This document shows positions 9,721-11,679 of a stretch of 16,533 bases of DNA, piece by piece. A program made the position numbers and the translations under genes. Source of the stretch: a virus. Each line of letters starts with the position of its first letter. The first letter of the stretch is position 1. The DNA lies in the UHGV virus genome UHGV-1601610; one strand, 5' to 3'. Below the pieces are notes generated by a model. That model was not told the DNA's origin. It worked only from the letters and a program-made list of their open reading frames with translations, and made no database searches.

Positions 9721-11679
9721 TTACGCCGTACATTTCACCAGGCCGCGGTGATCAACTGGCGCAACACCAGCGTCAATACGCACTTTCGTTGTCACGCCAT
9801 CCACACTGAAGCCCTCCATCTGATCAATATATGGCGTATCCACACCGTTGAGATAAGCCACTTCAATCGTATCGGAGCCTTTGGACGCAGCCAGGTAGAA
9901 GGTGGTCTGGCTGTTATCATCAAGACGAGGCTCTGCAATAACGGTCGCAAAATCTTTCACCGGGTTAATAATACCGGCGTTAATGTCAGCCCCCTTGACA
10001 CTTGAGGAGCGAATGACCTGGTTAGCAACAGACTCCATCGCCGTCGGTACCAGTACGAACGCAGGACGAATATTCAGATGACGCTCACCCTCTTTCTGAA
10101 CGCGCATCAACTGGCGGGCTTTATCCAGCGATGCCACGTCCATTGCCGCGCTCTCCAGTACGTTTGCATGTTTCGCTTTATCGAACAGACTTACATTATC
10201 TGTGGAGATTTTCGGGTTAGACGTCAGAATGGCATAAACCAGATCGGCAATAGTGGATTTCGCCGCACGGCCCAGCTTCATCGGGACATCGGTCAGCATA
10301 TTCAGATCATCATTGATAATGGCCTGACGGGTGATACTGAACAGCTCGCCATAGGTCGCCAGTGCAATAGTGGCCTGTTTATCTCCGGTGGTGACGTATT
10401 TATATTCTGCCCCTTCACGCACCTGACGCAGAGCACTGAAGCCCCCCATACCCACACGATGGGCAATTTTAAAATCAGACAACTGACCTTTCCGCGTCCA
10501 CTGTTCATAGGTTTCAGGGGCATCTTCCCAGCCCTGCAGAATGGCTTTGTTCGCAACATCCAGCAGAATATTACCGAAGTCAGACGTACTGTGTGTGAAC
10601 GCCGCACCGACCATCTGCATCGGGTTATAACTGGAAACACCAATACCACGTTCAGTCAGTGACATACGGGCATATTCACGCAGGGTCATCCCGTTGTAGA
10701 CATTATCACGTTCAGTTTTTTCAAACCCGGCGCGCGCCATCAGCGCCTGGCGGATCCCGTCCCCCACAAAATTACCGTTACCGGCATAAATATGAGCCGG
10801 GGTATTTTTATTGGATGGCGTGGACTCGCGCCCCATCTCGTTCAACAGCTTTTCGCGGGCCTGCTCCAGCGAACATTCAGGATCGGCAAGACACTGAGCC
10901 TGCAACGACTGATAACGCCCGCCAAACATGGCAAACAGATCATTAATACCGTTTACACGCGCTTTTTGCTCTGCCAGGACCTGCGCACGGATGCTGTTTT
11001 CATCCACCACGGGTGCTGCTGCCTGCACTGGCGTCCGGGAGGCTGCAGGTCCATCATCCTGTACGCGTGGAGCACTGTTGCGTGGCGGAGTAATCATATT
11101 TCGAATGGATTCCGGCATCTTTTTAAATTCCTCTGTACGTTTTGACTGAATACATGCCATTGCCTTAACGGCTGGTGTCACCTGATCAGCAAATCCCTGT
11201 GCCAGACATTCGGCACCGGACATCCAGGTCTCATCCGCCAGCATGGCAGCAATTTCATCGGTGGTTTTCCCGGTTTTCTGTGCATAAGCGGGTAACAGAA
11301 CCGCCTCAACTTTATCGAGCAGGTCGGCATAGGTGCGCATGTCCTCCGCATCACCGCCCGTAAAGCCAAATGGTTTATGAATCATCATGAAGGAGTTTTC
11401 CGGCATAATGACCGGGTTTCCCACCATCGCAATGACCGACGCCATTGACGCCGCCACACCGTCGACATAAACGGTAATGGACGCACCATGTGTTTTCAGT
11501 GCATTAAAAATGGCGATGCCTTCAAAGACATCGCCACCCGGTGAATTAATATGGAGATTAATGTGGGTGATATCGCCCAGTGCATTCAGATCACTGATAA
11601 ACTGCTTCGCCGTAACACCCCAGAAACCAATCTCGTCATAAATATAAATATCCGCGTCACTCTGGTGACCTGCCTGCAT
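9721..11679 (-). CDS. Tripartite prohead protease (ClpP-like) - scaffold-like linker - major capsid protein (HK97 fold) fusion
   Basis: One uninterrupted frame (ORF track 9721-11940). The N-terminal part has the ClpP signature HINSPGGDVFEGIAIFNALK ... AASMASVIAMVG ... MMIHKP (compare E. coli ClpP YINSPGG ... AASMGAFLL ... VMIHQP). The middle is A/Q/E-rich and the C-terminal ~380 aa resembles HK97-fold capsid proteins. Start is uncertain: the first ATG downstream of the portal stop is 11677-11679 (MQAGHQSD...) with poor SD; an upstream start overlapping the portal gene is possible. Confidence 0.8.
   Translation of the reverse strand: MQAGHQSDADIYIYDEIGFWGVTAKQFISDLNALGDITHINLHINSPGGDVFEGIAIFNALKTHGASITVYVDGVAASMASVIAMVGNPVIMPENSFMMIHKPFGFTGGDAEDMRTYADLLDKVEAVLLPAYAQKTGKTTDEIAAMLADETWMSGAECLAQGFADQVTPAVKAMACIQSKRTEEFKKMPESIRNMITPPRNSAPRVQDDGPAASRTPVQAAAPVVDENSIRAQVLAEQKARVNGINDLFAMFGGRYQSLQAQCLADPECSLEQAREKLLNEMGRESTPSNKNTPAHIYAGNGNFVGDGIRQALMARAGFEKTERDNVYNGMTLREYARMSLTERGIGVSSYNPMQMVGAAFTHSTSDFGNILLDVANKAILQGWEDAPETYEQWTRKGQLSDFKIAHRVGMGGFSALRQVREGAEYKYVTTGDKQATIALATYGELFSITRQAIINDDLNMLTDVPMKLGRAAKSTIADLVYAILTSNPKISTDNVSLFDKAKHANVLESAAMDVASLDKARQLMRVQKEGERHLNIRPAFVLVPTAMESVANQVIRSSSVKGADINAGIINPVKDFATVIAEPRLDDNSQTTFYLAASKGSDTIEVAYLNGVDTPYIDQMEGFSVDGVTTKVRIDAGVAPVDHRGLVKCTA

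Follow-up and report, generated by a model that had tools for sequence, protein, structure and literature searches.

Virus genome UHGV-1601610, a stretch of 16,533 nucleotides (nt) analysed here at its full length and referred to as the window, carries on its minus strand one long reading frame in which a ClpP-like prohead protease, a scaffold-like linker and a major capsid protein follow one another. This arrangement raises the question of whether a single gene supplies the proteins of the head shell and, if it does, where its translation begins and whether it is read into one product or two. An original prediction, made from the sequence of the window, had placed these segments in a single open reading frame (ORF) at 9721-11679 and had left the strand unstated; these limits correspond to a reading from the ATG at 11679 that yields 652 amino acids (aa). 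We conclude with high confidence that a lambdoid prophage of the mEp460/cdtI/Gifsy-2 type has its only head-shell gene at 9721-11748, and that one chain provides the protease, the scaffold-like and the capsid parts. The fused gene belongs to an already known, curated and very common family, and there is nothing new in the fusion itself. The additions made here are a corrected start codon and a comparative case for a second, internal start.

Architecture and distribution of the fusion gene

The minus-strand frame extends from 11940 down to a TAA stop (9721-9723) and contains no internal stop, neither in this full extent nor in the 675 codons of the fusion gene, and it is likewise uninterrupted in relatives; a stop-free frame of 2.0 kb that is kept across genera is far beyond chance. 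PHROG 133 matches the fusion protein end to end, and the NCBIfam model NF045540 aligns residues 32-674 with profile positions 2-651 of 652 at 983.9 bits (cut-off 475). This curated NCBI model (scaf_prot_MCP1) describes a 'ClpP-like prohead protease/major capsid protein fusion protein', and judged by its sequence the window gene is an ordinary member of the family, of the Gifsy-2 type, with no difference from it. Gene annotation, Pfam and PHROG gave no separate capsid, scaffold or protease gene within the window, which argues that one gene supplies all three functions.

The open frame, the Pfam matches and NF045540 bear out the prediction of one ORF with protease, linker and capsid. A Pfam search, which had been proposed as a check, matched both CLP_protease and Phage_capsid_4, and the motifs that had been named (INSPGG, AASMAS and MIHKP) are all present, as HINSPGGDVFEG, GVAASMASV and MMIHKP. 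In the numbering of the 675-aa protein, which is used throughout except where stated, the middle region comprises a conserved stretch (194-220), a Pro/Ala-rich linker (221-250), a three-helix domain (251-307) and a disordered segment (309-324). The expected enrichment of this region in Ala, Gln and Glu is moderate, with 30-32% of these residues in 221-306 against 21% overall, and the variable part of the linker consists mainly of Pro and Ala. Similarly, the C-terminal capsid region had been put at ~380 aa and is instead an HK97 fold of ~350 aa that follows a helical domain of 57 aa.

The fusion gene is widely distributed. Over 1959 bases it has 100% DNA identity to phage mEp460_ev081, 98-99% to mEp460, cdtI, Ayreon, Tritos, phi458 and others, and ~77% to several Stx-converting phages, and across its whole length the window shares 96-98% identity with these phages in their packaging, head and tail region. 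It was found in 2125 of 5426 complete E. coli genomes (~39%), with a coverage of at least 80% in 1988 genomes, and RefSeq names it as the NF045540 fusion in the six identical matches listed. The same architecture is present in Salmonella Gifsy-2 and in Pseudomonas phages, and most of the best 150 representatives of clusters formed at 50% identity are colinear with the window protein over near-full length, at 35-54% identity.

This distribution leaves next to no credibility to an artefact or a decaying pseudogene in which a lost stop or a sequencing frameshift has joined two genes. Separate protease and scaffold-capsid genes do exist in relatives, and the protein database holds odd chimeric ORFs such as portal-protease-capsid chains of 1080-1135 aa; against this stand the uninterrupted frame in cultured plaque-forming phages (mEp460, cdtI, Ayreon, phi458 and HannyBb), in the 1988 complete E. 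coli genomes, in Gifsy-2 and in Pseudomonas phages, the prevalence of fused forms among the best 150 representatives, and the existence of a curated NCBIfam model.

Four of the chimeric chains (P0033, P0034, P0063 and P0064) combine Pfam portal, ClpP and capsid domains; each comes from a single contig and has 99-100% identity to the window protein. A frameshift or an assembly error in the 56 nt shared by the portal and fusion genes probably accounts for them.

Table 1. Coordinates of the fusion gene, its parts, its candidate signals and the adjoining head genes in the window, with alternative linker starts of distant relatives
Feature	Position	Strand	Remarks
Fusion coding sequence (ClpP-like prohead protease / scaffold-like linker / major capsid protein)	9721..11748	minus	675 aa, 73.4 kDa
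Ends of the fusion coding sequence	GTG 11748-11746 (start), TAA 9723-9721 (stop)	minus
Shine-Dalgarno AAGGAGG	11754..11760	minus	5 nt before GTG 11748; within the 3' end of the portal gene
ATG, Met24	11677..11679	minus	start in the original prediction and in several phage records; probably an internal codon
ClpP-like (MEROPS S14-type) prohead protease domain	11170..11655	minus	residues 32-193
Putative catalytic Ser101	11446-11448	minus	within AASM motif
Putative catalytic His124	11377-11379	minus	within MIHKP motif
Glu173	11230-11232	minus	aligned with ClpP Asp171
In-frame ATG, Met211, candidate nested start	11116..11118	minus	protease/linker boundary; product 465 aa, 50.6 kDa
Internal Shine-Dalgarno-like GAGGA	11129..11133	minus	10 nt before ATG-211
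Variable Pro/Ala-rich low-complexity linker	10999..11088	minus	residues 221-250
Three-helix domain, scaffold- or delta-domain-like	10828..10998	minus	residues 251-307
Predicted disordered segment STPSNKNTPAHIYAGN	10777..10824	minus	residues 309-324, between helical domain and capsid fold
HK97-fold major capsid protein domain	9724..10776	minus	residues 325-675
Lambda-family portal gene	11693..13201	minus	Pfam Phage_portal_2 E 7.2e-82
Head decoration (cement) gene	9311..9637	minus	108 aa; Pfam Phage_cement_2 E 2.8e-20; PHROG 122 'head decoration' 1.2e-46
L091 alternative linker start			AAAGGAGACTCCT-ATG
L131 alternative linker start			GAAGAGGAAATCACC-ATG
L155 alternative linker start			ATTGAGGATACTACT-ATG
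L090 alternative linker start			CACGAGGCAACACCT-ATG

Start codon of the full-length protein

Several sequence features indicate that the gene very probably starts at GTG 11748 and not at ATG 11679, which gives an overlap of 56 nt with the portal gene. The competing start, with its product of 652 aa, has the commoner start codon and is the one annotated, as a 1959-nt coding sequence (CDS), for mEp460, cdtI, Ayreon and Tritos, but it is improbable on several counts. Among the in-frame start codons that precede the conserved YDEIG motif, its Shine-Dalgarno (SD) duplex with the 3' end of 16S rRNA amounts to -2.7 kcal/mol as against -11.6 kcal/mol at the GTG, in agreement with the original description of a poor SD at this ATG and of a frame that continues without a stop into the portal gene. 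The position of Met24 is occupied by Ile in Gifsy-2 and in Pseudomonas phage MD8, and both must therefore start upstream. A start at ATG 11679 would also delete the upstream motif Ser20-Trp21-Phe22 (Ser-Trp-Phe/Tyr), which is near-invariant in an alignment of 29 sequences; in distant relatives the Trp-Phe/Tyr motif lies 2-5 residues from the N-terminus (e.g. MKKWYDIKA and MAKNWYSIKA). Finally, the NCBI pipeline uses the GTG as the start in RefSeq genomes, with the exact 2028-nt CDS annotated in E. coli H7, and forms of 675 aa dominate the protein database.

The signals of the GTG start are themselves conserved, as both AAGGAGG and GTG are kept in Stx2_14040, CP-1639 and 1720a-02 at ~77% DNA identity. 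An upstream in-frame stop in Stx2_14040 allows no start beyond a TTG that lies 12 codons before the GTG.

With the start at GTG 11748, the fusion gene lacks its first 23 codons in many GenBank phage records, and in some its sole label is 'protease' or 'Nu3', which leaves the major capsid protein unannotated. The labels in these records include 'head maturation protease', 'head-tail preconnector protein Nu3', 'putative protease/scaffold protein', 'Major head protein' and 'Major Capsid Protein', and many records of this gene name no capsid protein at all.

Protease, linker and capsid domains

The N-terminal domain is recognized as ClpP-like at several levels. Pfam CLP_protease (PF00574) matches residues 23-168 of the 652-aa reading with an expectation value (E) of 4.6e-36, NF045542 ('head maturation protease, ClpP-related') scores 217 bits with a cut-off of 120, and ClpP chains in the PDB match with E down to 8e-16, their catalytic residues aligning with the Ser of AASM and the His of MIHKP. 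Ser101, His124 and Glu173 are invariant in the 29-sequence alignment, which covers Enterobacteria and Pseudomonas, and the Ser (AASM) and His (M/V-H-x-P) motifs are also invariant in a 52-sequence alignment of distant representatives. The third residue of the ClpP triad, an Asp, is replaced by Glu173 in the window protein and by Thr in some distant relatives. This replacement would suit a catalytically dead module with a structural or scaffolding role, maturation being left to a host protease; such an explanation is very unlikely in view of the invariant Ser and His motifs in both alignments and of a match to NF045542 well above its cut-off. A tethered prohead protease need not form ClpP-like heptameric rings with a Clp ATPase.

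The C-terminal domain is matched by Pfam Phage_capsid_4 (residues 354-649 of the 652-aa reading, E 6e-55) and more weakly by Mu gpT, and a profile search of PDB sequences found the capsid protein 9jod (9.6e-8) and the Mu gpT-domain capsids 8rkx and 8rkc (~1e-6). An AlphaFold2 model of residues 251-675, built from 147 diverse sequences, had a predicted local distance difference test score (pLDDT) of 88.8 and a predicted template modelling score (pTM) of 0.75. Foldseek comparison of this model with the PDB gave 328 matches at E <= 0.001, and the best 50 of these were encapsulins, an encapsulin-derived engineered cage or HK97-fold capsid proteins. As modelled, the fold of the C-terminal domain matches that of solved HK97-fold shell proteins. 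A full-length model built from 29 close homologues was poor (pLDDT 47.8) and was set aside for claims on fold.

Between these domains, the linker at 221-250 contains 20% Pro and 20% Ala, differs in both length and sequence between close relatives and has low confidence in the full-length model. The helical domain that follows is predicted to consist of helices 252-273, 280-288 and 294-307 (pLDDT ~90), and its sequence is conserved across Enterobacteria and Pseudomonas; we infer a scaffold function for it. In the model of residues 251-675, pLDDT drops below 50 nowhere but at residues 309-324, and on this structural basis they would be the likeliest candidate region for maturation cleavage. A cut there would leave 351-367 aa, or 38-40 kDa.

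A candidate internal start at Met211

A second question is whether the full-length chain is the only product. An in-frame ATG at the boundary of protease and linker would yield a scaffold-capsid protein of 465 aa that lacks the protease, made in addition to the full-length chain. The shorter form would then provide most shell subunits and a few full-length chains would bring in the protease by co-assembly, as in lambda, where gpC and the nested scaffold Nu3 have a common C-terminus. This two-product scheme complements the single-gene model, and we give it the same weight as translation of the full-length chain alone. The existence of a nested scaffold-capsid product from Met211, of the lambda C/Nu3 kind, is judged from sequence comparison to be about as probable as its absence, or marginally less so.

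The signal was examined in the clade of the window, sampled as 22 clusters of ClpP-type genes at 85% identity from ~160 loci; a locus search with the near-family alignment gave close relatives only, and the diverse DNA came from later searches. The Met211 ATG is present in 18 of the 22 clusters, and in all 18 of these AGGA is kept at codons -5/-4, 10-11 nt upstream, while flanking synonymous sites drift. Third positions of nearby codons show no constraint except at -8, where a Lys codon is almost always AAA. Codon -5 is always NAG, although it encodes Glu in 14 clusters, Gln in three and Lys in one. Where it is Glu the codon is GAG in 14 of 14 cases, as against four GAG and 11 GAA at the Glu codon next to it (Fisher p = 5e-5, with no correction for phylogenetic relatedness). 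The SD of Met211 ranks among the first three of ~25 internal ATGs in most clusters.

Other properties of this signal argue against a start. The spacing of 10-11 nt in the window clade is longer than optimal and the duplex reaches only -6.0 kcal/mol, a value that 8.7% of the other internal ATGs equal or better. The clusters are phylogenetically related, so that the statistics overstate their independence, and the conserved AGGA could serve another role at the RNA level. The SD energy of a single gene was rejected as evidence in its own right, since by our estimate about one-third of genes would be expected to have a linker ATG at -6 kcal/mol or stronger by chance. A programmed -1 frameshift at TTT AAA AAG before ATG-211, with GAGGA as a dnaX-like stimulator, was also considered and rejected, since the Lys-Lys codons are not conserved among clusters.

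The boundary Met is near-invariant in an alignment of 147 sequences from both fusion families; the second of these, the sister family NF045541, carries a protease unrelated to ClpP. Among distant ClpP-type representatives the Met column varies, which counts against the internal start: in the 52 distant sequences it holds Met, Ala, Ile, Val or Thr and only the next Pro is near-invariant, and Met211 was accordingly dropped as a universal residue. Distant ClpP-type lineages without Met211 each have a different linker ATG, which GAGG(A) precedes by 6-8 nt (L091, L131, L155 and L090; Table 1). In NF045541 the boundary Met is invariant in 37 sequences and has a canonical ribosome-binding site before it; its SD averages -7.0 kcal/mol as against -2.0 kcal/mol at other internal ATGs in 23 DNA clusters, ranking first in 12 of the 23 and first or second in 17.

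Unfused relatives mark the same boundary. In six NF045541-type loci (L229, L234, L235, L239, L241 and L245) the protease ORF ends in a stop, and after a short spacer a ribosome-binding site (e.g. AAAGGAG) and an ATG open a separate scaffold-capsid gene whose product begins MNKKLRAFL, with a similar motif after the start Met. This stand-alone protein is 33% identical to the Met211 product of the window over almost its whole length (E 8e-62). When the window protein is aligned with the NF045541 model, similarity starts at residue 220, which indicates that the shared module begins close to Met211.

In five of the six unfused loci (L229, L235, L239, L241 and L245) a lone stop in the same frame separates the protease and scaffold-capsid ORFs. 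This exceeds the chance expectation of one in three, although some of the loci are close relatives of one another, and it suggests either recent interconversion of fused and unfused forms or low-level read-through of the stop codon.

For the ClpP-type family, no clean unfused relative was found among the loci, and this also weighs against the internal start. Two candidates with MPxSAK... starts were rejected as stand-alone genes: P0469 runs off a contig of 1.5 kb, and P0406 (L318) looks like a frameshifted fused copy in a draft genome. The latter locus (GCA_000755365.1, BBMQ01000056, 1857-3832) encodes a protease of 201 aa and a scaffold-capsid protein of 443 aa (MPPSAK...) in different frames, and ahead of the second ATG the sequence retains the character of a fused form (SNRIKDFHNMP). 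Either a frameshift, in a pseudogene or through a sequencing error, has split the gene, or this is a natural example of reliance on the internal start.

Two fusion families whose proteases are unrelated thus share this internal-start signature, which in one family falls at the start codon of stand-alone scaffold-capsid genes of unfused relatives; this suggests that an intact downstream gene has repeatedly captured a protease gene in frame while keeping its own start. On this basis we propose, tentatively and at slightly less than equal weight with the contrary, that 'tripartite' capsid genes are nested genes, which produce an abundant scaffold-capsid chain and a minor full-length chain whose capsid domain serves the protease as an address label. 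If the internal start is true, the shell would consist mostly of scaffold-capsid chains with a few protease-bearing chains, and the model of assembly changes. It would also explain how the protease is dosed and targeted in a very common class of prophages of enterobacteria and pseudomonads, to which Stx- and Cdt-converting phages belong.

Proposed assembly pathway

For the single-gene model, the following sequence of events can be proposed. Translation would begin at GTG 11748 behind the strong AAGGAGG inside the end of the portal gene. The capsid domains would build a procapsid onto the portal and enclose the N-terminal parts, and the tethered protease would then remove the protease and scaffold parts, probably by cutting in or near residues 309-324, to leave a shell protein of ~38-40 kDa. 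The shell would subsequently expand and be cemented by the product of 9311-9637. The cleavage and the order of assembly are drawn by analogy from the Gifsy-2 homologue and from general knowledge of HK97 and lambda head assembly. The present analysis shows the architecture and fold of the protein, its homology, the start site and the context of the gene.

Several considerations weigh against this model. The third catalytic position is Glu173 instead of Asp and is not strictly conserved in distant relatives, and the poor full-length structure prediction gives no placement of the domains relative to each other. The cleavage site is a structural guess and proteolysis itself is inferred. Furthermore, a single polypeptide would not be the whole account of the head shell should Met211 be the start of most shell subunits.

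Neighbouring genes

The minus-strand gene order begins with a DUF1441 protein, a lambda gpA-type large terminase, a 72-aa gene and the lambda-family portal gene, whose annotation agrees in mEp460_ev081 and E. coli H7 and whose last 56 nt, up to its stop at 11693, overlap the fusion gene in another frame. The fusion gene is followed by the Phage_cement_2 decoration gene, which is syntenic with STM1034 of Gifsy-2 and encodes the functional partner of the capsid protein, by a Gifsy-2-family connector, and then by homologues of the tail genes Z, U, V (with a Big_2 domain), G, T, H and M.

Two hairpins lie between the capsid and decoration genes. One (GGCCCGTAAGGGCT, 9684-9697, minus strand) is followed by TTTTTTT and is terminator-like, 24 nt past the stop of the capsid gene; the second (CAGCCCCTGAACGGGGCTG), seen by eye, stands directly before the GGAG and ATG of the decoration gene. 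These hairpins could set the expression ratio of the two genes or stabilize mRNA in an otherwise anti-terminated late operon.

Two tail chaperone genes, G-like at 6854-7282 and T-like at 6516-6845, meet at a junction (6845-6870, minus strand) where the T-like ORF is in the -1 frame relative to the G-like ORF and this frame is open throughout, as in the programmed frameshift of lambda G/GT. The likely slip site is CCG GAA AAG (G GAA AAG) rather than the canonical lambda G GGA AAG, and GGGAAAG was absent from the junction. The lambda-type tail tube protein (7301-8119, minus strand) has a C-terminal Big_2 immunoglobulin-like domain at residues 186-263, as does lambda gpV.

Comparison with known systems

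Among the closest described systems is Salmonella prophage Gifsy-2, whose tripartite capsid gene the original prediction had named as a match; alignment supports the likeness, since STM1034.3n (NC_010393, CDS 22471-24561) is 70% identical in protein over its full length and colinear in protease, linker and capsid. It also has the same neighbours, a lambda-type portal gene upstream and, on the other side, a decoration gene of ~107 aa, and GAGGAG again precedes an internal Met-Pro. The two differ in the linker, which is longer in Gifsy-2 (annotated product of 696 aa), and in the start, an ATG annotated 46 codons before YDEIG in Gifsy-2 and a GTG 36 codons before it in the window. The tripartite gene of Gifsy-2 has reportedly been studied experimentally, in work attributed to Effantin et al. 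2010, Virology 402:355. The protein gp5 of Pseudomonas phage MD8, from a different host genus, is 57% identical to the window protein over the full length. Passages in the literature cite the fused protease/coat gene of Gifsy-2 (PMC12315714) and, with reference to the same 2010 paper, its lambda-D-like trimeric decoration protein (PMC8538268). For MD8 gp5, the single-gene architecture was concluded independently, in passages that present no experimental data and do not discuss an internal start (PMC8508860).

The sister family NF045541 (scaf_prot_MCP2), exemplified by the 'peptidase U35' of Pseudoalteromonas phage B8b, has a homologous module of linker, helical domain and capsid, and shares the in-frame fusion to a prohead protease and the conserved boundary Met. 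Its protease differs, in that the Pfam ClpP domain was not found there and the B8b record annotates an HK97-type U35 protease. The window protein scores 399 bits against this model from ~residue 220, below the cut-off of 525, and the window gene is thus not a member.

In HK97 the protease gp4 is a separate gene of another family, and gp5 joins a delta domain to the capsid protein. By analogy, the presence of a decoration protein here suggests cementing of the shell rather than the chain-mail cross-linking of HK97.

Phage lambda offers a parallel for a nested gene. It has the same order of terminase, portal, protease/scaffold and decoration genes, and its C and Nu3 genes place protease and scaffold in one frame with a nested internal start, which in the window is putative. 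It differs in that the capsid protein is encoded by a separate gene, E, with the decoration gene D before it, and in that gpC is not ClpP-like by sequence. The I and Z genes of phage Mu are nested protease-scaffold genes like C and Nu3. A version of the nested protease-scaffold arrangement is found in herpesviruses as well (PMC11565193).

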